The position numbers and the translations under genes were made by a program. From Candidatus Aenigmatarchaeota archaeon (GTDB taxonomy: Archaea; Aenigmatarchaeota; Aenigmatarchaeia; QMZP01; QMZT01), in the NCBI GenBank assembly GCA_043808015.1, contig JAZDFI010000008.1, positions 13,271-77,270 of the forward strand: DNA of 64,000 nt. Direction: 5' to 3'. Shown here piece by piece: positions 4,015 to 48,704 of the stretch (position 1 is its first letter; each line of letters begins with the position of its first letter). A model generated the notes under the pieces. The model ran no database searches, was not told where the DNA came from, and saw only the letters and a list, made by a program, of their open reading frames with translations.

Positions 4015-7000
4015 TCAAGAATCAGAACCAGATTCTGCAGTGTATTGCGCCAATTCCTTCGGCCAGCATATATCATTGAATGTTATCAGCGTGTCCTTGG
4101 TGTCCTTCTTGGTGAAGCTGTACGTCGCACTCGCTGTTATAGTGTATGTCTTTTTCGGAACTTCTAACCTGCTGATACCGTTGTAGCTGCATACGCCGTC
4201 ATTTGAAAAGCCCAGCTCAAAAATATAGGCGGAAACGTTCGCGTCTTTATTGTTCAGATCAAATTTGAAACTTCTCGTGCACGTAGGTTCGCCCAAATCC
4301 TTGGTTACGTTTAAGGACACTTTGGCATTGCTTACCGCAGTGTTTTTCGGATCCCAAGTGGTTGAAAGATTGAAACCGATATAGAATCCTGTGCTTGCCT
4401 TTATTGGCTGGTCCATTGAACCGAGATTGAGGTTGGCAGGCGAAGTTGAAAGCAGAGAAGGCTTCTGCGCTCTTACAAGCTTGTCTTCTGATGAGAGCCT
4501 CTTCCATTCCTGGTCTGAAATGAAATCTATCTGCAGATTCGACGTCGACTCGTATTCGTAAGTCACGTTAATCATGAAAGGTATGTATTTCTCCCTCACC
4601 GTATGCTCTTGGCCGCCGATAAATCCGAAATCGTTCCACGCAGTGCTTCTGAAGTCTTCGCATTCCAGTTTACCGTAAAGTAGGATTGGGATGGTTTCTT
4701 TCATTTCTATATCTTCTATATTTATTCCCATAGCCTGGTTGATGTAATTTTTATCCATTGTGAACCTGTACCATTGTTCATTGGTCTTCTCGTTCTTGGG
4801 CAGCTTTTCCATTTTGTTTGTTGGGACGGTATTATGTCCAATCTTGAAATCCCTTATAGTCGTTAGTAAATCAATTCTGACGTTCTTTGCGTGGAATTGT
4901 CCCTTGTTCTCCAGCTCCATTTCTATCAAGAAAGGCTCCCCGAGATATATTGGATGGACGTCAAACTTCCTTATCTCCAGGCCGTACGCCCCTGATATTC
5001 CCATCTCGTTTTGCGCGTATTGGCCATTCGTTATCTGTTGAGCATACCCGACCGGGTTGGTGAACAGCATCCATCCCTGGCCGAACGTGTTCTGGAACTG
5101 ACCGAACATGTCGCCCATCGGCTTGAAGAAGTCATTTACGCCATTGTGGACTGACGGCCACCACTCGCCGAAGAAGGCCACGCCCACCGACTGCTGGCCG
5201 GAGCCAAGGCCGAAAATCACGAAACCTATCACGAGTATTATTACACCCATCCATGGCCTCGTCTCTGCCGGGGTTGTGAGCCCGGCTACAAGACCGAGAA
5301 TCCAAACGGCACTGAATACTATGCCGCCTGTTCCGGAGAAGAAGCCGCCAGCTAGGTTGAAGCCACCTATGACGGCAAAAATTACCATTATCGCAACGAA
5401 TACGACTTTGTCTATCATGTCGTAGCTTGCCCCTGACGCATTGCCTATTTTACCCAGAGCCTTTGCCAGGTTGTTCTTTTCTGTTGCGACAGGCAAAACG
5501 ACGAAGAAGGCCAACGTCAGCCAGCCAAGCTCTTTCGACTGGAATATGCCTCCGCCCAAAACGCCGAATATGAAAAAGGCTATGAAAAGTGCCAGCAGAA
5601 CCCTAACGAATGAAAGGATGAAGTCGTATGGCTTTGATGGTTCGAACTCTATCGGCATCTTGAAGTAAAAGCCGAACGCAAGGAACAGCAGCAGAAGATT
5701 GGAGCCCGGGAACTGCTGCGAATAAAGGCCGCCGATGAAGCACACCACGATGCCTGCCATCGCAACGGCTTTCAGAAAAGCTATGCCAGTGTTCGTTCTG
5801 TTTTCCGTATTAGTGAAAAGGCTGCCGAAAGTAGTGAATTCCTCGGCGTCGAGCTTGTTTTCCTTTGGGTTTGGAAGTATCATGTGGAAGCCCCAGAAAA
5901 TGAATCCGATAAGATACCATATGTTGCTTGTGTAAGCCGATATGGCAATTCCAATTATGACCAGAACCAGCGAAGAAATTATGTGATTGACGCCGTGACC
6001 AGTCTTCCTGGAAAAATCCGAGATGAGTCTGGAGCCTTTCGTCGCCTTTCCCAATGCTCGACCAGGACCCTTTTCTAAAATCGTGCTATCTGGCCTTTCG
6101 CCCTTACCGTCTAGATAATCTTTTATTTGCTCTTCTCTTGACCTGTTTTTTTCTTTTGCCTGTCCTTCTACCGACCGATTTTTTATTTCCAGTTTTATTA
6201 CGTCGGGGTCTGTCGGGCTGACTTCACCAGCGCTTACGACCACGCTTGCCGTTGCACTCACTTCCCTTACCTGCGTTGAAAATTCATCGGTGTATTCCTT
6301 CGTCACAGATACTTTGTATGACTTTACGCGCACTGCCGGCTGCCATGGTATCCTGCCGGCAGGAATGTCGGGAATGAAAAACTTGCCGTTCTTGCCGGAT
6401 GTGCCTTTATAATGCGTGCCGTTGACATCAATCAAGATTATTGCACCATCAACAGGAGAGCCGTGCAGGTCGGATATAATTCCGGTAGCAGCCCCGACTG
6501 CTTTGTCCGGGTCAGCCTGTTTGTTCCCTTCATGATTATGATAATGTAATTCTACATCTACAGGGTTGTCATGCACGTCAACATTGGTATTTCTATTTTT
6601 AGTGTTGTGAGTAGTGGTTTGTGTGCTACGCTGGTAGTTCTGATAGTTGAAATTAAATCCACCCTTGCCTTTTCCTCCGCCACCGCCTCCCCCACCGGAA
6701 CCGTCGAATTTTTTCGTTTTGACTTCTTTGAGCTCTTTTTTTAGCAGGAAATGACAGCCTTCTATGGCATAATGCGGATTGAAACCAGCGTTTGCCAGAG
6801 ACTTATTAATATCGATAGCTTTCGCATCTCCGGATTGAATATATGTGGGAATATCCTGAAGGTATCTCATAAGATCGTTGTATCTGGCTATTTTTTCCTT
6901 TGTGCCCATTCCCACCCATTGAACACCCGGAAAAAATATGTCCCTTGCGATTCTCAGCGCCTGCATATCCCTTCGTACTAAAGAAACTTCGTCCGGGTTT

Positions 7001-7053
7001 AAATCTGGCCCTTTCTTGCCTCTGCCTGTTAATCTGAACCTTTCAAGCACCAT
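4015..7053 (-). CDS. Large (1012 aa) multi-domain membrane protein of unknown function
   Basis: ATG at 7053. No N-terminal signal peptide. Contains a Gly run (GSGGGGGGGGKGKGG), an N/T/H-rich low-complexity stretch, a CarboxypepD_reg-like beta-sandwich (GSPVDGAIILIDVNGTHYKGTSGKNGKFFIPDIPAGR), about 8 TM helices, and a roughly 370-aa beta-rich C-terminal region with a CARDB-like segment (PIYLGEPFLIEMELENKGQFHAKNVRIDL). Confidence 0.7.
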   Translation of the reverse strand: MVLERFRLTGRGKKGPDLNPDEVSLVRRDMQALRIARDIFFPGVQWVGMGTKEKIARYNDLMRYLQDIPTYIQSGDAKAIDINKSLANAGFNPHYAIEGCHFLLKKELKEVKTKKFDGSGGGGGGGGKGKGGFNFNYQNYQRSTQTTTHNTKNRNTNVDVHDNPVDVELHYHNHEGNKQADPDKAVGAATGIISDLHGSPVDGAIILIDVNGTHYKGTSGKNGKFFIPDIPAGRIPWQPAVRVKSYKVSVTKEYTDEFSTQVREVSATASVVVSAGEVSPTDPDVIKLEIKNRSVEGQAKEKNRSREEQIKDYLDGKGERPDSTILEKGPGRALGKATKGSRLISDFSRKTGHGVNHIISSLVLVIIGIAISAYTSNIWYLIGFIFWGFHMILPNPKENKLDAEEFTTFGSLFTNTENRTNTGIAFLKAVAMAGIVVCFIGGLYSQQFPGSNLLLLFLAFGFYFKMPIEFEPSKPYDFILSFVRVLLALFIAFFIFGVLGGGIFQSKELGWLTLAFFVVLPVATEKNNLAKALGKIGNASGASYDMIDKVVFVAIMVIFAVIGGFNLAGGFFSGTGGIVFSAVWILGLVAGLTTPAETRPWMGVIILVIGFVIFGLGSGQQSVGVAFFGEWWPSVHNGVNDFFKPMGDMFGQFQNTFGQGWMLFTNPVGYAQQITNGQYAQNEMGISGAYGLEIRKFDVHPIYLGEPFLIEMELENKGQFHAKNVRIDLLTTIRDFKIGHNTVPTNKMEKLPKNEKTNEQWYRFTMDKNYINQAMGINIEDIEMKETIPILLYGKLECEDFRSTAWNDFGFIGGQEHTVREKYIPFMINVTYEYESTSNLQIDFISDQEWKRLSSEDKLVRAQKPSLLSTSPANLNLGSMDQPIKASTGFYIGFNLSTTWDPKNTAVSNAKVSLNVTKDLGEPTCTRSFKFDLNNKDANVSAYIFELGFSNDGVCSYNGISRLEVPKKTYTITASATYSFTKKDTKDTLITFNDICWPKELAQYTAESGSDS

Positions 7054-8404: not shown

Positions 8405-9545
8405 ATGAGATTTAACATTCTGCAATATCTGCCTAAAGAAACAAAGATAATGATTGACAAAGATTTAGCGCAAATTCTATTTGCCAATAAAAAACTTTGC
8501 GAATTTTCCAGAGAATACGGAATCGGCTTAAAAAATATGAGCAGATACAGAAACTGCACCCGCTCGATTCCTATAAAATTATTTCAAAAAATAGCTCAAA
8601 ATTCTCCCATTAGAATGGAAGAATTCCAAGGAAAGATGCGAATTAAAATAAACAGAATGGGCAAGTATGTCAAAATAGGACCTGTTATAAACATTGATGA
8701 AAAGTGGGTATATATTTCGGAACTCATTAAAGGTGATGGTTATATCCCGTCTACTTACTGGTATATAGTTTTTGTTAATAAAAATGAAAATTTGATTAAT
8801 GTTGTCAAGAACTTTTTTTTTATCTTTGGGCTTGCCTGAAAAACAAATTGATATTCGAAGAAGATCAGATGCAACATTCCTTACAGTCAGATCATCTCCT
8901 ATTGCATACATCCTCAACGGAATACTTGGAGTGCCTGTTGGGAAGAAGGGCGAGATCGGTATCAAAAAGTTTGTTATGAATGATAAAATATTGTCGGTGG
9001 CGGCCGTTAGAGGGGCATTTGATGCGGAAGGTGCCGCTACATTCACCGGGTCGCGGAGGATATCCATAACGTCAAATAGTCAAACATGGCTCCTATATTT
9101 AAGTAAAATATTGAAGAATCTCGGTATAAAATCCACAATATATGAAGAACGGAAAGGTAGAAAAAAACCGATATATCGTTTGTTTGTGCAACATATTATT
9201 AACATTCGCAGGTTTTATGAAATAGTCCAACCTCAGCATACGCAAAGGAGTAGAAAACTTAGAGAAATCATTGAAACGTACAGCAAACCATATTTTGGTG
9301 TCGGGTATCTGAGGAAACCCATACTTCTTTCGATAAAATCAGGAAATACGAGAAGATCAAAAATAGCAGAAGACATATCACAAAATCCTATAACAGTTGG
9401 AAATAATATCAAATGGTTAAGAAAAAGAGGACTGATAAGGCCTTCAAAAATGGTTTATACGAACAATGGTGGCTTCTATGAATATATTTTGACAGAGATG
9501 GGGCTGAAATACCTAAGAGATGACACTCTCTCTTTTTTTGATTAG
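8405..9545 (+). pseudogene. Free-standing double-motif LAGLIDADG endonuclease-like gene with N-terminal HTH and C-terminal winged helix, interrupted by a frameshift
   Basis: ORF 8405..8839 carries motif 1 (SELIKGDGYI). ORF 8799..9545 carries motif 2 (AAVRGAFDAEGAA) and a wHTH-like tail (ITVGNNIKWLRKRGLI). The frames switch at a T9 run (8813..8821). The region is visibly AT-rich. Confidence 0.6.
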
Positions 9546-11240
9546 CTTGGTTATTTCGCTAATGAAGTCATCAATCTTAACGTTAAATTTCACCTTACCA
9601 TCTCTCGTTCTAACTGCCAAAGTGTTATTTTTTTCCTCTTTATCGCCAATTGTAATTACAAAAGGTATTTTATTTACAGCCGCATCCCTTACTTTGTATT
9701 CCACTGTGTTCGATTTCAGGTCGCATTCCGCCCTTATCCCCGCATTTTCAAGGCTTTTCAAGATTTCACCGGCCGCCTTATTGTTCCTGTCCGTGAAGGA
9801 CAGGACGCGCACCTGGACAGGCGAGAGCCAGACCGGAAGGTTGCCGTCAAAGTGCTCGAGAAGTATGCCTATGAACCTTTCCAAAGAGCCGTATATGACC
9901 CTGTGCAACATTACCGGCCGATGGTCCTCGTTGTCTTCCCCTTTGTACGTCAGGTCGAACCTTTCCGGCATGGCGAAGTCGAGTTGTATGGTTGCGCACT
10001 GCCAGGTCCTGCCCTGGCTGTCCTTGATGTGATAATCAATTTTCGGGCCGTAAAACGCACCATCGCCCTTGTTTATCTTGAAGTTCATTTTTTTGTGTTT
10101 GAGTGTCTCCTCGAGCTTCGCCTCCGCCTTGTCCCATATTTTGTCGTCGCCTATCCTTTTCTCGGGCCTGGTGGAAAGCTCGACGTGGTATTCGAACCCG
10201 AACTTTTTGTAAAATTTATCGACCAGTTCCATTATCCTTCCTATCTCGCTCTCCAGTTGTTCTTCGGTGCAGAAGATGTGCGCGTCGTCCTGAGTGAAGC
10301 GAATTACCCTGAAAAGCCCTGTGAGCACGCCGGACAGCTCCTGGCGGTGGACTACGCCAAGCTCGCCGACGCGAAGGGGGAGATCTTTGTAGGACTTGGG
10401 CCTGTTCTTGTAAACCATCATCCCTCCGGGGCAGTTCATGGGCTTGACGGCAAAGCTCCGGCCCTCGTACTCGGTTATGAAGTTGTTCTGGTATTTCTCC
10501 CAATGGCCTGAAATCTGCCACAACTTCTTGTCCATGATTTGCGGAGTCGAAATCTCCTGGTATCCAGCCTTCCTGTGCTGCTCCCTCCAGAAGCTGATTA
10601 GTTCGTTATATATGGTGAGACCCTTATCATGCCAGAACACCATACCTGGAGCGACTTCGCTGAAGCTGAAGAGGTCCATCTTCTGGCCGAGTATGCGGTG
10701 ATCGTTGTCCTTGAGGTTATCCTTGTCGAGCCGCGTCTTCGAGATGTCTCTCATAAGCTGCTTGTAGTCAAAACTCTCTTCCTTCGTTACCTTGGTTTTT
10801 GTTTTGGTCCTCTCGACCCCCTCGGGCAGTATGTCCCTGCTGAGCTCCGAAAGAGGATGCCCCTTGCACTTTATGTCGAAGGCCTTGTACCAGCCGAAGG
10901 GAGCGCGCTTAACCGGGACTTTCGCTTCGATTAGCGCTTCTTCCACGCCCTTGAGCACGTAGAGAGCGGAATCCGGCGACGATAGATCGCTGGACAGGTG
11001 GGCATACGGATAAACGACTACGTTTTTGGCGTTTACCTGGTTTCTGACGGATATGATTTCCTTGGCGGCTTTCTTGACCACGTCATCGAGGTTTGCCTGG
11101 TCCAGCTTCTCGACCGCGCTGAACACGACGAGGGCGTCTTCGACTCGTACGGGTTTCTTCTCGATTTCCTCCGCGCTTGAAATGGCTTTCTTCTTCGGCT
11201 CCCACTCTATGAAATCCGAATGCAGCAATAATATCTTCAT
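9513..11240 (-). CDS. thrS: Threonyl-tRNA synthetase, archaeal type with N-terminal archaeal editing domain
   Basis: 575 aa. Starts MKILLLHSDFIEWEPKKKAI. Class II core (FWHDKG, RVIRFTQDDAHIF) and a C-terminal anticodon-binding domain. Confidence 0.9.
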   Translation of the reverse strand: MKILLLHSDFIEWEPKKKAISSAEEIEKKPVRVEDALVVFSAVEKLDQANLDDVVKKAAKEIISVRNQVNAKNVVVYPYAHLSSDLSSPDSALYVLKGVEEALIEAKVPVKRAPFGWYKAFDIKCKGHPLSELSRDILPEGVERTKTKTKVTKEESFDYKQLMRDISKTRLDKDNLKDNDHRILGQKMDLFSFSEVAPGMVFWHDKGLTIYNELISFWREQHRKAGYQEISTPQIMDKKLWQISGHWEKYQNNFITEYEGRSFAVKPMNCPGGMMVYKNRPKSYKDLPLRVGELGVVHRQELSGVLTGLFRVIRFTQDDAHIFCTEEQLESEIGRIMELVDKFYKKFGFEYHVELSTRPEKRIGDDKIWDKAEAKLEETLKHKKMNFKINKGDGAFYGPKIDYHIKDSQGRTWQCATIQLDFAMPERFDLTYKGEDNEDHRPVMLHRVIYGSLERFIGILLEHFDGNLPVWLSPVQVRVLSFTDRNNKAAGEILKSLENAGIRAECDLKSNTVEYKVRDAAVNKIPFVITIGDKEEKNNTLAVRTRDGKVKFNVKIDDFISEITKLIKKRESVIS

Positions 11241-11414: not shown

Positions 11415-12263
11415 TTAAAAGTTTTTCAGGAACGAGTAAACGCATTCCGGCAGCTTCTCGCTGTATCCGCCTTCCAGCACTGCGAATCTCGATATTTTCA
11501 GATCGGCTATCATCTTGGCGATTTTTGCATAAGTGGCGACGTTGAGCTTCAGCCCGCCAATCGGGTCGCCATCGAGCGTGTCGAAGCCCGCCGATATAGC
11601 CAGCGCATCCGGCTTGAAGTTTTCTATTATCTCCATCGCAGCTCCGAGCCTGTCGAGATAAAGCGTTTCTTCCGTCCCTGCGTCGAGCGGGAAGTTGTAA
11701 CAGTTCGCTTCAGAATGCTTGCCGGTGCCCGGATAGAAAAACGCTCCATATTGATGCAGCGATACGACTATCACGTTCTTTTTGCCAAGAAAGATTTCCT
11801 GCGTGCCGTTGCAGTGATGTACGTCGATGTCGAGAACCGCGACCTTCTTTTTCTGTTGCAGAAGCCTCGAGACCGCGAGCGCGATGTTGTTGAAATAGCA
11901 GAATCCCTCGAAATTCGTCTTGCCCGCGTGATGGCCGGGCGGGCGCATTAACGAGAATGCTTTTCCTTCCTTCAGCGATATATCGGCGGCCAGCATAGCC
12001 GCTCCTGCAGCGAGTTTCGCGTGGTCGTAAATGCCCGGGAGCGCTGGCGTTTCCGGATTGAAGAAACGGTCGTGCTTTATTTCGTTGACCATCGCCTTAG
12101 AATGGACGAGCAGCAGGTCCTGCCGCTCGCACGGCTCCGGCTGGACGAACTCGAAGCCCTTGAAATTCTGCAGGAACTCGTAACTCCTTCTCACCCGCGC
12201 GCTCGACTCGGGGTGGCCCGGCGCATCGTATCCGAGACACTTGGGCGAGAATATTATCTTCAT
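11415..12263 (-). CDS. Histone deacetylase-family (AcuC/Aph-like) zinc deacetylase
   Basis: Motifs PPGHHAGKTNFEGFCYFNN, DIDVHHCNGTQEIF, SAGFDTLDGDPIGG and LEGGYS. Start moved to MKIIFSPK (ATG 12263). The upstream 83 codons of the ORF overlap the divergent primase gene. Confidence 0.8.
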   Translation of the reverse strand: MKIIFSPKCLGYDAPGHPESSARVRRSYEFLQNFKGFEFVQPEPCERQDLLLVHSKAMVNEIKHDRFFNPETPALPGIYDHAKLAAGAAMLAADISLKEGKAFSLMRPPGHHAGKTNFEGFCYFNNIALAVSRLLQQKKKVAVLDIDVHHCNGTQEIFLGKKNVIVVSLHQYGAFFYPGTGKHSEANCYNFPLDAGTEETLYLDRLGAAMEIIENFKPDALAISAGFDTLDGDPIGGLKLNVATYAKIAKMIADLKISRFAVLEGGYSEKLPECVYSFLKNF

Positions 12264-12323: not shown

Positions 12324-13637
12324 ATGATGGATTTGAGAGGGGTGCACGAGTATTATGCAAGGGAGGATGTGCAGAACTTCCTGCTCGAGTTCGGTAGAGA
12401 CAGGGAAGTCGTTGGCGTGTTCAGGAACGGCAGTTTCTCTCAGAGGCCTAACGTCGTTCTCTACCCGAATGACGTTCTCGCTATGGTCAAGACGGGCGTC
12501 GTCGAATTCCACTCGTCTCTCGAACGTTGGTCACAGCCCATGAGCCTGAAGCAGGACAACCATGGCCAGCTGCGCAAGGGATGGGACCTCATAATGGACG
12601 TGGACTGCGAGCTTTTCGAGCACGGCAAAATCGCCTCGGAGGCGTTCATCTGGGGCCTGCGCAAGCACGATATAAAAAACGTGTCCATAAAGTTCACTGG
12701 CGGCACTGGGTTCCACATAGGCATACCATGGGAGTCGATACCAAACGTCATAGACTATAAACCAGCGGCTTCCCTTTATCCCGAGCTCGCCCGAAAGATG
12801 GTGCTGTACCTGAAAGATTATGTTTTTGAAAGGCTGGAAAAGAACCTGTTCAAAAAATTCTCGGCCGAGGAAATGGCACAGCAGGTGAACAAGCCTCTCG
12901 GCAAGATACTCACGGAAGACGGCCTGAACGCGTACGCGGTGGTCGACGTCGACCCGGTCCTCATATCGCCGCGGCATCTATTTAGAATGCCTTACTCGCT
13001 AAACGCGAAGACGTTTCTCGTTTCGCTGCCCATCGATCCAGACAGGCTTGACAGCTTCGACCGCATGCAGGCCAAGGCAGAGCGCGTGCGAGTGCTGACG
13101 CCCTTCCTCTCCGGCGAAGGCAGGGACGGCGAAGCCGATACGCTCATAGCCGAGGCGCTGGACTGGAACGCGCGGATGCGCAAGAAGGAGGAGAAGCGGC
13201 TCGAACACAGAAACGAGATAACACGACCCGTCCCCATCGAGCGTTTCCCGCCGTGCGTCAAGAACATACTGAACGGGCTGCAGGATGGACGAAAGCGCTC
13301 GATGTTCATCCTCATCAACTTCCTGCGCTCCTCAAAGTGGACGTGGGACGACATAGAGAAGTTCGTCACCGAATGGAACAAGAGCAACAAGCCGCCGCTT
13401 CCGGAGAGCCACGTCCGCTCGCATATAAGATGGCACAGGACGAGGAACAAGGAAGTCCTGCCTCCGAATTGTTCGAACGAGGGATGGTACAAGAACTTCG
13501 GCGTGTGCGCGCCTGACGAGAAATGCGCCAAGGTAAAGAATCCGGTCAACTACGCGCTCCGCGGCATGAAGGCCGAGGAAGAGAAGAAAGACAAAACAAA
13601 AACCAAAACTAAGAAGCGCGCCCGCCGTCAGATGTAA
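12324..13637 (+). CDS. priS: DNA primase: PriS catalytic domain fused to a PriL C-terminal (Fe-S)-like domain
   Basis: PriS motifs DLIMDVDCE, FTGGTGFHIGIPW and VDPVLISPRHLFRMPYSLNAKT. C-terminal part: FPPCVKNILNGLQDGRKRSMFILINFLR...PPNC...GVCAPDEKC, with four Cys spaced like the PriL-CTD cluster ligands. Confidence 0.8.
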   Translation: MMDLRGVHEYYAREDVQNFLLEFGRDREVVGVFRNGSFSQRPNVVLYPNDVLAMVKTGVVEFHSSLERWSQPMSLKQDNHGQLRKGWDLIMDVDCELFEHGKIASEAFIWGLRKHDIKNVSIKFTGGTGFHIGIPWESIPNVIDYKPAASLYPELARKMVLYLKDYVFERLEKNLFKKFSAEEMAQQVNKPLGKILTEDGLNAYAVVDVDPVLISPRHLFRMPYSLNAKTFLVSLPIDPDRLDSFDRMQAKAERVRVLTPFLSGEGRDGEADTLIAEALDWNARMRKKEEKRLEHRNEITRPVPIERFPPCVKNILNGLQDGRKRSMFILINFLRSSKWTWDDIEKFVTEWNKSNKPPLPESHVRSHIRWHRTRNKEVLPPNCSNEGWYKNFGVCAPDEKCAKVKNPVNYALRGMKAEEEKKDKTKTKTKKRARRQM

Positions 13638-13792
13638 AAACTTGTCCAGCAGAATTTCCAGTCGACGCAGTTGCTGAAGCCGCCATTCTCATTTGTACAA
13701 CAGTCTCTGCATAGCGGTTTCTGCGTTTTCTTGCACACCACGACTTTCAATGTTTTAGTGCATTTTTCGCACGCGTGCTTTTCGCTTTCCAT
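13628..13792 (-). CDS. Small Cys-rich ORF (54 aa), unknown function
   Basis: Not in the ORF track (under 60 aa). Hand translation: MESEKHACEKCTKTLKVVVCKKTQKPLCRDCCTNENGGFSNCVDWKFCWTSFYI, with 9 Cys. Its TGA overlaps the primase stop region. Confidence 0.3.
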   Translation of the reverse strand: MESEKHACEKCTKTLKVVVCKKTQKPLCRDCCTNENGGFSNCVDWKFCWTSFYI

Positions 13793-13876: not shown

Positions 13877-13996
13877 TTAACCCCTCTTCAGCTTCTCAAG
13901 CCTGACAGAACCGCATTTGGGGCAGACTTTCGTCGCCGGCTCCATTATGACGGGCTTGACGTCTTTCCCGCACTGCAGACATCTGTATTTTGCCAT
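13877..13996 (-). CDS. rpoP: Zinc-ribbon protein resembling RNA polymerase subunit P (Rpo12)
   Basis: Not in the ORF track. Hand translation: MAKYRCLQCGKDVKPVIMEPATKVCPKCGSVRLEKLKRG (39 aa). The Y-x-C-x2-C...C-P-x-C-G pattern matches archaeal RpoP. Confidence 0.45.
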   Translation of the reverse strand: MAKYRCLQCGKDVKPVIMEPATKVCPKCGSVRLEKLKRG

Positions 13997-20382: not shown

Positions 20383-20547
20383 TAGCCCCGGGCGGATTCG
20401 AACCGCCGTCAACCGGTTTCTCCCGATTCGGGTTTTTGCTGAAGCTTTTTATTAAAAAGCTTCGTCCAGAGCCGGTTATCCTTAACCCCCCTCTCAAATC
20501 GCTTTAAGAAAAATTTTCAAAGGGATTGGCCACTAGACTACGGGGCT
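20383..20547 (-). tRNA. tRNA-Gln(CUG) with two introns (D-loop and canonical 37/38)
   Basis: Hand fold of the reverse complement: AGCCCCG-TA-GTCT-AGTGGCCAA-[44 nt]-GGAT-A-ACCGG-CTCTGG-[48 nt]-A-CCGGT-TGAC-GGCGG-TTCGAAT-CCGCC-CGGGGCT-A. The spliced product is 73 nt. Confidence 0.75.
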
Positions 20548-21422
20548 ATATTCAACATTCTTCTTACGTGCTTTATATTATTAAATCTTATGTTTGTTTT
20601 ATATTTTTCTATCTCCTCCTTTTTAGAGAGGAAAAATTGATCTAAAATTATTTTAGATGGAGAAAAACCAAGTGATATTAAACCACTTCTCGCGTCAAAA
20701 AGCAAATTTTTAGATTTATTTTTAAAGGATATTCTCAATAATTTTCTATCTCGTCTTGACATTCTAAATATTGATCCATCTGTATCTATCAAACCTCTTA
20801 TACATGATTTTAAAAAATTGGTATCAGTTTTTATCCATTCAGGTATTCCAACATTATTCACTTTTTTATTACCGTTTTTTAACCCAAAACTTTCCAATAT
20901 TTTTATAATTTCTTTGCTGTATACAGTTATGAATATTTCATTTTTTCTCATCTCGATTTTTGAATTTATTTTAAAAATGTCATCTACCAGAGGTTTTACA
21001 AAATTCAATAAATAATCTCTTTCTGTTTTCAAATCTCCAGCTATTTTTAACGCATATACGCCCTTTTCTCCGTTCCAGTAGAGATTACCATCGCCTAAAA
21101 TTATCCCTATGATTTCAGCCAATTCGATTGATTTTTCAGGAATCATAATTTTTTTGGTTTTACCGGGGGAATTTTTACCTCCCAGTACTTTGCCCCAATT
21201 GTCTTCCAGTTTTTTATCGATATGTTTGTAGAATTCAACTTCGGCAACCTGACACAATTTTTTAAAAACTTCTGAATTTAACGATACTTTTTCATTGAGT
21301 AAATCTATTCTCAAATAATCTTTACTAACTCCCACCATTTTACTCAATTGCAGCCATGTTTTATTTCTTTTCGCTTTCAATATAAGTTCCCTCTGCTTAC
21401 CATTTTTTAATATTACCCGCAT
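20538..21422 (-). CDS. Free-standing double-motif LAGLIDADG endonuclease-like protein with N-terminal HTH
   Basis: Motif 1 AEIIGIILGDGNLY, motif 2 IRGLIDTDGSIF. Very AT-rich coding sequence. The last 10 nt, including the TAG stop, overlap the 5' end of tRNA-Gln. Confidence 0.7.
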   Translation of the reverse strand: MRVILKNGKQRELILKAKRNKTWLQLSKMVGVSKDYLRIDLLNEKVSLNSEVFKKLCQVAEVEFYKHIDKKLEDNWGKVLGGKNSPGKTKKIMIPEKSIELAEIIGIILGDGNLYWNGEKGVYALKIAGDLKTERDYLLNFVKPLVDDIFKINSKIEMRKNEIFITVYSKEIIKILESFGLKNGNKKVNNVGIPEWIKTDTNFLKSCIRGLIDTDGSIFRMSRRDRKLLRISFKNKSKNLLFDARSGLISLGFSPSKIILDQFFLSKKEEIEKYKTNIRFNNIKHVRRMLNIAP

Positions 21423-21573
21423 TAAATTATTTAGTTTTTCTCACTTATAAATTTCCTTGTACACTGGACTACATATTAAAAAGTAAAATAATGTCAAATT
21501 ATTGTAACTTTTTAGTGATAAAACTATTTATAAATAAAAAAATCAAGTATTTACAATAAAACGGGTGACAGGT

Positions 21574-22953
21574 ATGGACTTCGGTTTCGAGAGCTTCGAT
21601 GCCGGTTTTGCAGGCTTTGACGTGGATGTGGAAGACTTCCATATCAGCAAAAAGAAGAAATACGACAGGATATGGAAGGTTGGTGCTGGCGGCAGCGTGT
21701 GCTCCAAACCTGTCATTGATGGCAATGTAGCTTACTTTGGGTCGCTTGATCATAATGTCTATGCTATTGATTTGAATACCGGCAAAGAGCTTTGGAGATT
21801 AAAGACTAACGGCCTTATACTTGATTCCTCTCCATCTCTGCATGATGGAGTGCTGTTCATCGGAACCTTTGGTCACGACGTTCATGCCATAAACGCTTAT
21901 GAAGGAACCGAGTTGTGGAAATTCCGTGCAGGAGCGGAGATAAACTCCAGACCTCTCGTTTTCAACGATATGGTATTTTTCACGTCAAAGAACGGCTACA
22001 TGTATGCTGTGAGCGAATCCTCTGGAAAGGAGCTGTGGCGCTTCAGGACGGGAGCGGAAATGGTTTCAGCACCGACCCAATACGATGGCAAAATAATAAT
22101 CGGCTCATACGACGGATACCTTTATTGTGTTAATATCGACGGTAAGGAACTCTGGCGCTTCAGAACAGGAGCGGAAATAGAAAATGACGATTATTTTCTC
22201 ATAGATGACGGCATAATATACTTCGGCAGCTTCGACAACAATCTTTATGCCGTGGACATAAAGACAGGCCGTGAAGCATGGCGCTTCAAAACGGGCAAAT
22301 ACGGCAACTGCGGCGTGCCGAGGATGCACAAAAAAGTCATATATTACGGATCGAGGGACGGTATATTCTACGCCATAGACTCCATTACGGGAAAAGAAAC
22401 CTGGCGCTTCAGCACAGGCAAAGAGATAATAGACAAGGGCCCCCTGGTATACAAAAACAAAATCTATTTCGGCGCGGGCGACAACAATGTTTATTGCCTG
22501 AACCTCGAAGGCGAAGAACTCTGGCGCTTCAAGACCAGCGGCGGAGTTTACACGTCTGTAGTTGAGCACAAAGGTACGCTCTACTTCGGCAGCTGGGACT
22601 GCCACCTTTACGCAGTCGATTCAGCTACGGGCAAAGAGGTGTGGCGCTTTGCGACTAGCTCGCTTACGCCAGCGCCGTTGCCGCCTGCATACGAATGCTT
22701 TGAAGTGGAAATCAAAAAAGGCGCTCACATAGAGGACGCGATATCTGAAGAAAAATATTCCAGTAAAAAACACGATCACGTTTCTCTTTCAAACTACCAG
22801 ATAACGAGCGAGTATTCGACTAAGAGCGAATACAAGCAGAAGAGCGATTACGACGCCCATTGGGTAATGTTTGAAGGTATACTAAACGAGGAGGAACTGA
22901 CATGTCTTTCGAATTTGGTGGATTTGAATCAGCGGACTTTGATGTCGAGCTAG
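21574..22953 (+). CDS. 8-bladed PQQ-like beta-propeller repeat protein, paralog 1
   Basis: Eight repeats of G-K-E-L-W-R-F-(R/K)-T-G spaced about 40 aa apart. No signal peptide. Acidic F/D-rich N-terminus. ATG at 21574 (the track start 21565 is GTG). Confidence 0.75.
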   Translation: MDFGFESFDAGFAGFDVDVEDFHISKKKKYDRIWKVGAGGSVCSKPVIDGNVAYFGSLDHNVYAIDLNTGKELWRLKTNGLILDSSPSLHDGVLFIGTFGHDVHAINAYEGTELWKFRAGAEINSRPLVFNDMVFFTSKNGYMYAVSESSGKELWRFRTGAEMVSAPTQYDGKIIIGSYDGYLYCVNIDGKELWRFRTGAEIENDDYFLIDDGIIYFGSFDNNLYAVDIKTGREAWRFKTGKYGNCGVPRMHKKVIYYGSRDGIFYAIDSITGKETWRFSTGKEIIDKGPLVYKNKIYFGAGDNNVYCLNLEGEELWRFKTSGGVYTSVVEHKGTLYFGSWDCHLYAVDSATGKEVWRFATSSLTPAPLPPAYECFEVEIKKGAHIEDAISEEKYSSKKHDHVSLSNYQITSEYSTKSEYKQKSDYDAHWVMFEGILNEEELTCLSNLVDLNQRTLMSS

Positions 22954-24254
22954 AAGATATCGAAATTAAAAGAACGAAAAAATTCGACAGGATGTGGGAA
23001 GTCGGCTTCGGCGGCAGCATCAACAACGGAGTAAGGCTTGTTGACGGCATAATATATTTCGGAGCCATGGACAACTACGTTTACGCTGTCGACGCATCGG
23101 ATGGCAAGGAAGTTTGGAAATTCAGGACAGGCGACGGCATATGCGAAAGCACGCCGGAAGTCTCGGGAGGCATAGTGTACGTCGGTTCTTTTGATCATAA
23201 TCTTTACGCGATTGACGCCAAGACTGGTACGATGAAATGGGCTTTCAGAACAGGCGGCAAGGTAGACGCATCCCCCATCGAAAGCGAAGGGATTGTTTAT
23301 GCCGGCTCAAAGGACTGTTATATCTATGCCGTTGACTGCAAGTCTGGCAAAGAAGTATGGCGCTTCAGAACAGGAGACGAGATAGCCTCGGCTCCGACAC
23401 TCCATGACAACGTGATTTTCAACGGCTCTTTTGACAAGAATTTCTACTGCCTGAACAAGAAAACGGGCAAGGAGATTTGGCGCTTCCGCACTGGTGGGGA
23501 AATACACAACGACAGGCCTTTCCTCGTGGTTAATGAAAGAGTATTTTTCACGTCATTTGACAGCCATCTTTACTGCGCTGATGTTAAAACGGGTAAAGAA
23601 ATATGGCGTTTTAAGACCGGACGATACGGCAACGCTGGTAGTCCTGCGTATAACAACGGAGTCATATATCACGGTTCCAGAGACGGCATATTCTATGCAA
23701 TTTCACATGAAGGCAGAGAGTTGTGGAGATTCAGAACAGAGAGAGATGAACCTATAGACGTAATACCACTGATATACAAAAACAGGATATATTTCGGAGC
23801 AGGTGACGGTAACTTTTATTGTCTTGATCTGAACGGAAAGGAAATGTGGAGATTCAGAGCTTCACACAACATTTACACTTCTGCGGCCGTGTTTAACAAT
23901 GTGATATTTTTCAATTCGATGGATTGCCACTTATATGCGCTGGACGCGGACACCGGAGAGGAAGTGTGGAGATTCGCCACGTCGACGATGACAATCTCAC
24001 CATTACCGCCGCCTTATGCATCCTTCAAACTCGAGGTCCGTAAATCACAAATATCTGAACATTTTGATATCAAAGAAAAATACAAGAAAAGCAAAGAAGA
24101 AACAGTGTCGCTGTCCGATTACCACATCAAAAGCGATTATGCAACAACTAGCGAATACAAGCAAAAAAGCGACTACGACACGCATTGGGTCATGCTCGAT
24201 GAAGTGTTTGCCGACGAACCTGAAATTTTCTGCGGAATTCTGAAGAAAGCCTGA
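22902..24254 (+). CDS. 8-bladed PQQ-like beta-propeller repeat protein, paralog 2
   Basis: Same architecture as paralog 1. The start is preceded by GAGGAGGAA and lies 52 nt inside the 3' end of paralog 1. Confidence 0.75.
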   Translation: MSFEFGGFESADFDVELEDIEIKRTKKFDRMWEVGFGGSINNGVRLVDGIIYFGAMDNYVYAVDASDGKEVWKFRTGDGICESTPEVSGGIVYVGSFDHNLYAIDAKTGTMKWAFRTGGKVDASPIESEGIVYAGSKDCYIYAVDCKSGKEVWRFRTGDEIASAPTLHDNVIFNGSFDKNFYCLNKKTGKEIWRFRTGGEIHNDRPFLVVNERVFFTSFDSHLYCADVKTGKEIWRFKTGRYGNAGSPAYNNGVIYHGSRDGIFYAISHEGRELWRFRTERDEPIDVIPLIYKNRIYFGAGDGNFYCLDLNGKEMWRFRASHNIYTSAAVFNNVIFFNSMDCHLYALDADTGEEVWRFATSTMTISPLPPPYASFKLEVRKSQISEHFDIKEKYKKSKEETVSLSDYHIKSDYATTSEYKQKSDYDTHWVMLDEVFADEPEIFCGILKKA

Positions 24255-46400: not shown

Positions 46401-47992
<1,592 letters not shown>

Positions 47993-48083
47993 TATATATA
48001 TCTCGCGCTCTCAACGCGTCTCCTACTTCTTCACACAGTCTTCAGCGATTGGCGCATACTCGTATGCGTCTTTCGTCAGTATT

Positions 48084-48216
48084 GGGCCGATAGATCAGCG
48101 GTAATGCGCGGGCGCAAGCCTGCGGTCGCTTGAGATCGCTCGCTTTGCAAGCGAGAGGCCGTGGGTTCAAATACGCCTTCGGCACGCCGCAGGCGATGGG
48201 AATCCCACTCGGTCCA
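48084..48216 (+). tRNA. tRNA-Ala(UGC) in the 16S-23S spacer, with two non-canonical introns (D-loop and T-loop)
   Basis: Hand fold: GGGCCGA-TA-GATC-AGCGGTAA-[~29 nt]-GATC-G-CTCGC-TTTGCAA-GCGAG-AGGCC-GTGGG-TTCAAAT-[31 nt]-CCCAC-TCGGTCC-A. The G3:U70 Ala identity pair is present. Confidence 0.75.
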
Positions 48217-48668
48217 TAAAAGCCTTTTAGAAAAAGGCTTTAGCGAAAAACGAAAGCGCGAACAATGTATATAAAGACCTGGCAACAATAATTAGTTGCT
48301 CACGCTTACGGAAAACGCAGGTGATGTCTGCGGTTTCCAAAACAATGGCTATCCAAAGCTGTTCAGAGCTGTGTCGTATCCGTGACAGGGAATGGCATTG
48401 CAGTCGGAGGGTGGCGTACGCGAGTACGATATCTGTTTTTCTGGACAAGCTAGGGCTAGCGACAACCAAATCTCAATGTCACGGATCATGCTAACCACAT
48501 TACACCGAACCGATTGCGGTTGATGCAAACCCGCTTTCGGCATATGAAGCCTTTCAGCGAACGCTGATGGGTGGATTAGAGAGGAGCGATGAATATCATA
48601 CAGTCACCTGAACGGACGCGCAAGCGCCTGTAATGACGAGGTGAACACCAATTGAGTTCCTTGATGAT

Positions 48669-48704
48669 GAAACATTGGCGAGTTGTCCTGACAAAAAGGA
48701 TCTG
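48669..48704 (+). promoter_or_regulatory. 5' arm of the 23S processing stem
   Basis: GAAACAT-TGGCGAGTTGTCC-TGACAAA-AAG-GATCTG pairs with 51817..51855. Helices of 6, 7, 13 and 7 bp are separated by 3-nt bulges (bulge-helix-bulge-like). Confidence 0.7.

Follow-up and report, generated by a model that had tools for sequence, protein, structure and literature searches.

A single-chain PriS-PriL DNA primase gene in an Aenigmarchaeota genome, a further member of a published DPANN family

Reportedly, a fusion of a PriS catalytic domain to a PriL Fe-S domain was noted in Nanoarchaeum equitans by Iyer et al. in 2005. The gene treated here is of this kind and lies in a 64,000-nucleotide stretch from a Candidatus Aenigmatarchaeota archaeon (GenBank assembly GCA_043808015.1, contig JAZDFI010000008.1, positions 13,271 to 77,270), which we call the window. 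A first-pass annotation, made from the letters of the window without database searches, had read the gene as a PriS domain joined to a PriL-like Fe-S domain and had pointed to the compact fusion of N. equitans; that precedent is on record and now has its own biochemistry (PMC10250227).

The N. equitans protein, NEQ395, is a brown, Fe-S-containing monomer that primes in a sequence-specific manner, at a template triplet with a central T, and its primers are about 9 nt long (Schneider, Bergsch & Lipps, NAR 2023, PMC10250227). According to the same study, initiation needs the PriL domain in cis and is not complemented in trans, and the length of the linker, an element at residues 251-280 in the models, sets the length of the primer. 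Residues H58, D87/D89, H125, D194, H202 and R205 are essential to all synthesis, and the D87/D89 double mutation abolishes activity; mutations of R301, R303 and F306 abolish priming and leave elongation intact; C289, C364, C376 and C384 are the Fe-S ligands. The authors have already put NEQ395 forward as a minimal model primase. It is the only archaeo-eukaryotic primase (AEP) in the N. equitans genome.

Beyond N. equitans, Raymann et al. (2014) extended the fused primase to Nanohaloarchaea and Parvarchaeota, found the short primase of one nanohaloarchaeon split into two adjacent genes, and saw no sequence similarity between the fusion of plasmid pTN2 and those of DPANN archaea (PMC3914693). 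Dombrowski et al. (2020) found that every Undinarchaeota and every DPANN Cluster 2 lineage, Aenigmarchaeota included, has the fused form, which they regarded as a synapomorphy; in Cluster 1, priS and priL remain separate genes (PMC7414124). Canonical primases, such as those of Pyrococcus abyssi (9f26/9f28), human (4rr2) and yeast (Pri2 C-terminal domain, 6di2), are PriS/PriL heterodimers of two chains and about 80-110 kDa, whereas the protein encoded here is one chain of 51 kDa that has neither the PriL N-terminal domain nor a Zn-binding motif in its PriS half. A third comparison is with the monomeric AEPs of mobile elements (PolpTN2 of pTN2, ORF904 of pRN1, RepB' of RSF1010), in which an AEP domain is likewise tethered to a helical initiation domain, in RepB' through a long connecting helix as here. 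Their helical domains lack the four-Cys signature of PriL or show no detectable similarity to the DPANN fusions, and they are carried by plasmids or viruses, in contrast to the conserved chromosomal context of the present gene.

The proposed fusion was borne out, as a complete open reading frame (ORF) occupies exactly 12324..13637 (+) and both domains are matched within its single polypeptide. The computed protein has 437 aa, a mass of 50.9 kDa and an isoelectric point (pI) of 9.4. Its N-terminus, MMDLRGVHEYY, fits the family consensus MNLRxVYEYY, so we take the start codon to be correct. Every motif quoted in the first-pass annotation was located in the translation: DLIMDVDCE at aa 88-96, FTGGTGFHI at 124-132, RHLFRMPYSLNAKT at 217-230, FPPCVKNILNGLQDGRKRSMFILINFLR at 308-335, PPNC at 380-383, GVC at 393-395 and EKC at 399-401. 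The order of the two domains stands as first described, while their extents, given then as about 300 and 130 aa, were slightly refined to a PriS domain at about aa 1-255, a linker helix at 272-294, a PriL C-terminal domain (CTD) at about 305-410 and a basic tail at 411-437. The full-length AlphaFold2 model (mean predicted local distance difference test score, pLDDT, 87.6) shows the same succession: an alpha/beta catalytic domain is followed by the long helix and then by a helical C-terminal domain, and the chain ends in a helix of low confidence. Coordinates are collected in Table 1.

Conservation was assessed on 52 aligned homologues (50-83% identity) and on a reference set of 80 loci, N. equitans not among them, out of at least 592 in the GTDB species set. 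AEP motifs I to III are present in the N-terminal domain as LIMDVD, GFH and VD and supply the acidic triad and the His of the RRM-like (RNA recognition motif-like) AEP fold; the fold of AEP domains is matched at E 5e-8. Residues D92 and D94 are kept in 52/52 homologues and 80/80 reference orthologues; H63, H131, D210, H218 and R221 are invariant among the homologues, and T and S are the two residues seen at position 125. Across the reference set, where identity falls as low as 37%, the catalytic residues are kept in 78-80 of the 80 sequences. Profile evidence for this half is less clear-cut: Pfam PF01896 (DNA_primase_S) scores 25.2 bits (E 2.3e-5) on aa 116-238, its gathering score being 26.8, and matches 34/52 homologues scanned one by one (E<=1e-3; best E 1.1e-9). 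A phmmer search aligns aa 203-250 with eukaryotic PriS chains (8g9f_D and others). The AlphaFold2 model is mostly above pLDDT 90 in this domain, and with the full-length model Foldseek finds AEP catalytic domains at E 5e-8 to 5e-5, among them Prim-PolC, the LigD polymerase domain (PolDom) and human, yeast and Pyrococcus PriS.

The ranking of these matches raises the question of whether the gene encodes mainly a repair primase-polymerase of the non-homologous end-joining (NHEJ) type, akin to LigD PolDom or Prim-PolC, and not a replicative primase. The top Foldseek matches are Mycobacterium smegmatis Prim-PolC and the LigD/NHEJ polymerases of Pseudomonas aeruginosa, M. tuberculosis and Methanocella (E 5e-8 to 1e-5, TMt <=0.56), with canonical PriS chains below them at TMt 0.32-0.45. 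The Pfam family LigD_Prim-Pol matches 32/52 homologues (best E 1e-9), about as strongly as PF01896 does, and archaeal replicative primases are reported to take part in double-strand-break repair (PMC12019639). We nevertheless consider a mainly repair-type enzyme very unlikely. NHEJ polymerases lack the PriL-type Fe-S domain that the present protein has in conserved form, no Ku or ligase gene is found among the annotated immediate neighbours, and NEQ395, an orthologue, acts as a true primase with sequence specificity and has no second AEP beside it in its genome. The closer structural match to NHEJ polymerases is probably due to the compactness of the catalytic domain, which has no Zn-binding insertion; with C95, beside the catalytic Asp, as the single Cys of the PriS half, no Zn-binding motif can be formed there.

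The C-terminal third is assigned to PriL by several profiles. Pfam PF04104 (DNA_primase_lrg) clears its gathering score of 22.4 with 29.1 bits on aa 285-385 and matches 47/52 homologues scanned singly; PF01896 falls just short of its own for the PriS half (25.2 against 26.8). Five NCBIfam PriL models match aa 272-433 (best E 2.2e-9) with scores far under their full-length equivalog cutoffs, as expected when the CTD alone is present. The matched parts are positions 87-190 of 266 in the Pfam profile and 196-337 of 358 in NCBIfam, and no other part is matched; since PriL models match through their C-terminal third only, the PriL N-terminal domain is absent. A profile of the C-terminal 142 residues, run against all PDB sequences, has P. 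abyssi PriL (9f26_B) as its sole match (E 5.5e-8), colinear through FPPC and PPNC...C.PD..C...NP..Y. Among the PDB sequences searched the primase has no close relative, the best sequence match being a canonical PriL at E 8.7e-5. One other candidate for the C-terminal region, PriCT_1, a C-terminal domain of mobile-element primases, was rejected because its match was non-significant, whereas that to PriL was significant.

The four suitably spaced Cys that had been likened to PriL are C311, C383, C395 and C401, which with C95 make up all five Cys of the protein. They are invariant in 52/52 homologues, show the 1 + 3 arrangement of the known PriL cluster ligands and align with those of P. abyssi PriL. 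In the reference set, where we counted by MAFFT column because the spacing is variable (a fixed regular expression misses 23/80), they are present in 79, 78, 66 and 78 of the 80 orthologues, the lower third count being due to spacing that shifts in some sequences, e.g. L028. By analogy with NEQ395, these four residues are predicted to bind a [4Fe-4S] cluster. At the helix end predicted to hold the initiating nucleotide, R325 does not vary, while the residue at 323 is either R or K and that at 328 either F or L. The C-terminal tail varies in sequence yet is basic in all family members; its pLDDT in the AlphaFold2 model is 52-71.

Compared with NEQ395, the protein has the same PriS domain, long linker helix and four-Cys PriL CTD and the same lack of the PriL N-terminal domain, and both are encoded by chromosomal genes of DPANN archaea. 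By numbering and spacing, residues H58, D87/D89 and H125 of NEQ395 correspond to H63, D92/D94 and H131 here (offset +5/+6), and S119 to T125; D194/H202/R205 correspond to D210/H218/R221 with identical internal spacing (offset +16); C289, R301, R303 and F306 to C311, R323, R325 and F328 (offset +22); C364/C376 to C383/C395 (offset +19), and C384 to C401. The two differ in host (Nanoarchaeota vs Aenigmarchaeota) and length (393 aa vs 437 aa here), in the distance between the last two Cys (8 residues vs 6 here), and in what follows the last Cys, which is 36 residues here, including the 27-residue K/R-rich tail. At most nine residues follow the last Cys of NEQ395, so it has no such tail.

Transferred from NEQ395, the mechanism would be as follows. 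The N-terminal AEP/PriS domain would carry out templated ribonucleotide polymerisation with the acidic triad D92/D94/D210, H131 and an elongating-nucleotide pocket formed by H63, T125, H218 and R221. Helix 272-294 would tether this domain to the helical PriL-type domain, which would carry its [4Fe-4S] cluster on C311, C383, C395 and C401 and hold the initiating nucleotide, and then the 5' end of the nascent primer, through R323, R325 and F328. That hold would permit de novo dinucleotide synthesis and, together with the tether length, would set the length of the primer. In heterodimers, PriL is docked onto PriS by its N-terminal domain; judging from the model, the linker helix stands in for that domain here, so that a covalent link would replace the docking and the protein would function as a monomer.

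A broader function is conceivable, namely that the protein is both the replicative primase and a gap-filling or end-joining polymerase, the tail serving as an additional binding surface for DNA or a partner and the template specificity departing from that of NEQ395. This suggestion arises because the catalytic domain is as near to NHEJ Prim-Pol as to PriS and because the K/R-rich tail is not found in NEQ395. We regard the full form of it as unlikely, while a secondary role of the primase in repair is compatible with the data.

The family is large. A protein-database search gave 3340 homologues at E<=1e-3, the best at 94% identity and none an exact copy; the best 120 of them are 417-483 aa long, and those that are named come nearly all from Aenigmarchaeota metagenome-assembled genomes (MAGs). 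Judged by sequence comparison, homology is far beyond chance. Full-length relatives occur in at least 592 GTDB reference loci, at 37-42% identity in Woese-, Pace- and Nanoarchaeia. With the protein database included, the relatives in Aenigmarchaeota MAGs are at 50-94%. The DPANN-like origin suggested in the first-pass annotation is upheld by the nearest GTDB locus, an Aenigmarchaeota MAG at 78% identity, and by the conserved gene order. Kinship to the DPANN fused primases is evident in the homologues and the synteny, the host lineage belongs to Cluster 2, and the protein has the layout of that group (both domains in one ORF, a linker helix and no PriL N-terminal domain), with no substantive difference from the fused priS-priL of Cluster 2 and Undinarchaeota.

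In each of the 80 reference loci (1.15 Mb in all), one and the same ORF is matched by the PriS-like and by the PriL-CTD-like profile, in agreement with the published fused form throughout Cluster 2. This bears on whether the fused protein might work with a separate canonical PriL, or a PriX-like subunit, encoded elsewhere. Of the source genome 64 kb is at hand, PriX-type extra subunits exist in some archaea, and the nanohaloarchaeal split of the short primase is a precedent for a divided enzyme. Against such a partner, profile searches found no second PriS- or PriL-CTD-like ORF in the 1.15 Mb around the 80 orthologues, nor, with the same profiles, in a six-frame translation of the window; surveys report separate priS and priL in Cluster 1 only, the fused version being found in all of Cluster 2; and NEQ395 acts as a monomer that is not complemented in trans. 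We therefore hold an additional subunit to be highly improbable.

The genomic setting speaks to a further possibility, that the gene is the primase/replicase of an integrated plasmid or virus, either a fusion of the pTN2 type or an AEP of the pRN1 type that has a helix-bundle or PriCT domain. Monomers of an AEP and a helical domain are typical of mobile elements (PMC3914693, PMC3973330, PMC5862659), PriCT_1 gives its faint Pfam match at E 0.22, and two low-GC insertions carrying LAGLIDADG genes lie in the same window. The primase region itself has a GC content of 0.53, typical of the rest of the window, and its neighbours are housekeeping genes in the order adenylate kinase, threonyl-tRNA synthetase (ThrRS), HDAC (histone deacetylase), primase, Drg-type GTPase, Kef-type transporter, KsgA, KaiC-like ATPase and FEN1, an order that recurs at L001 and L002, the nearest two loci of Aenigmarchaeota. 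There is a single copy per locus in 80/80 genomes, the pTN2 fusion is reported to lack sequence similarity to its DPANN counterparts (PMC3914693), and the primase has no helicase, integrase or Rep domain either fused to it or next to it. A mobile-element origin was rejected on GC content and conserved synteny, and we consider it exceedingly unlikely; the kept synteny and typical GC indicate a vertically inherited housekeeping gene.

Taken together, we put at roughly 0.93 the probability that the gene encodes a one-chain DNA primase which is the cellular replicative primase of an archaeon in the Aenigmarchaeota (DPANN Cluster 2). Several observations weigh against this reading. For the sequence itself PF01896 is 1.6 bits under the Pfam gathering score, and canonical PriS is no closer to the catalytic domain than bacterial NHEJ Prim-Pol domains are. 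In structure comparison the AEP fold is matched and the C-terminal domain has the helical PriL-CTD character, but Foldseek with a CTD-only model gave no significant match (best E 3.9, PriL chains at E 7-9). The residue correspondence to NEQ395 was drawn from numbering and spacing, not from a direct alignment, and the search for a separate priL in the source genome covered 64 kb.

The gene is an ordinary orthologue and already known, as the family is published and has already been reported in the Aenigmarchaeota lineage. It has little significance beyond annotation. It is a dependable marker of a Cluster 2 DPANN origin for the window, here Aenigmarchaeota, and as a further orthologue of mesophile-like character (GC about 0.5) it could be used beside the thermophilic NEQ395 in the study of one-chain initiation and counting. 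An experimental structure of any family member would still be useful, for reasons that lie in the published work and not in the window.

Table 1. Features of the primase gene and its upstream region, numbered from the first letter of the window
Feature	Position	Strand	Basis
TATA-box-like A/T-rich element ATAATTTAA	12290..12298	+	Read from sequence, ~30 nt upstream of the primase ATG
Monomeric PriS-PriL(CTD) primase gene, complete	12324..13637	+	ORF, 437 aa + stop
AEP/PriS-type catalytic domain, ~aa 1-255	12324..13088	+	Pfam, Foldseek
AEP motif I (hhhDhD), DLIMDVDCE, predicted metal-binding D92 + D94	12585..12611	+	Conservation, NEQ395 correspondence
AEP motif II (sxH), FTGGTGFHI, T125 + H131	12693..12719	+	Conservation, NEQ395 correspondence
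AEP motif III + predicted nucleotide-binding stretch, D210 ... R217 H218 LF R221 MPYSLNAKT	12951..13013	+	Conservation
Long linker alpha-helix, aa 272-294	13137..13205	+	DSSP on AlphaFold2 model
PriL C-terminal [4Fe-4S] domain (cluster predicted), ~aa 305-410	13236..13553	+	Profiles, four Cys
Cys311, predicted Fe-S ligand 1 (in FPPC)	13254..13256	+	Conservation, alignment with P. abyssi PriL FPPC
R323-K-R325-S-M-F328, helix end predicted to bind initiating nucleotide/primer 5' end	13290..13307	+	NEQ395 spacing
Cys383, Cys395, Cys401, predicted Fe-S ligands 2-4 (PPNC...GVC.PD..C)	13470..13526	+	Conservation, P. abyssi PriL alignment
Lys/Arg-rich C-terminal tail, aa 411-437	13554..13634	+	12 K+R in 27 residues, pI 10.8

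Upstream of the primase, ATAATTTAA sits in the 60 bp that separate it from the divergently oriented HDAC-family gene (11415-12263, -) and is a putative archaeal TATA box. Downstream, the interval up to the Drg GTPase gene holds two small Cys-rich ORFs on the opposite strand. One (13628-13792, -) would encode 54 aa with 9 Cys and has, at its end, a 10-nt overlap with the primase stop codon; the other (13877-13996, -) would encode a 39-aa CxxC...CxxC zinc ribbon (Zn_ribbon_8, E 4e-8).

The two low-GC patches span 8405-9545 and 20538-21422, with GC of 0.40 and 0.37 vs about 0.50 elsewhere in the window, and hold free-standing LAGLIDADG_3 ORFs at 8799-9545 (+; E 3.7e-13) and 20538-21422 (-; E 3.4e-9). 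Neither ORF has a counterpart in the syntenic loci L001 and L002, and the patches look like lineage-specific intergenic insertions of homing-endonuclease-type genes. The ThrRS gene (9513-11240, -), which adjoins one of them, has the same domains as in L001 and L002 (archaeal editing domain, class II core and anticodon-binding domain) and is 31-33% identical to the syntenic ThrRS there, while flanking genes are at 50-87%; it may be a xenologous replacement.

Elsewhere in the window, an ORF of 1012 aa (4015-7053, -) with 40-52% identity in L001 and L002 has a weak, sub-cutoff CarboxypepD_reg-like Pfam match and probably encodes a large surface protein. Two tandem, slightly overlapping PQQ (pyrroloquinoline quinone)/beta-propeller paralogues of 462 and 450 aa occupy 21565-24254 (+), where L001 has one copy and L002 none. 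The rRNA operon (46401-51828) has its 16S gene at 46401-47839 and its 23S gene at 48693-51828, the latter with a span of 3136 nt that exceeds the model length (2987) and points to insertions. ARAGORN finds no tRNA in the window, whereas Rfam reports a 109-nt tRNA at 54658-54766 that presumably contains an intron.
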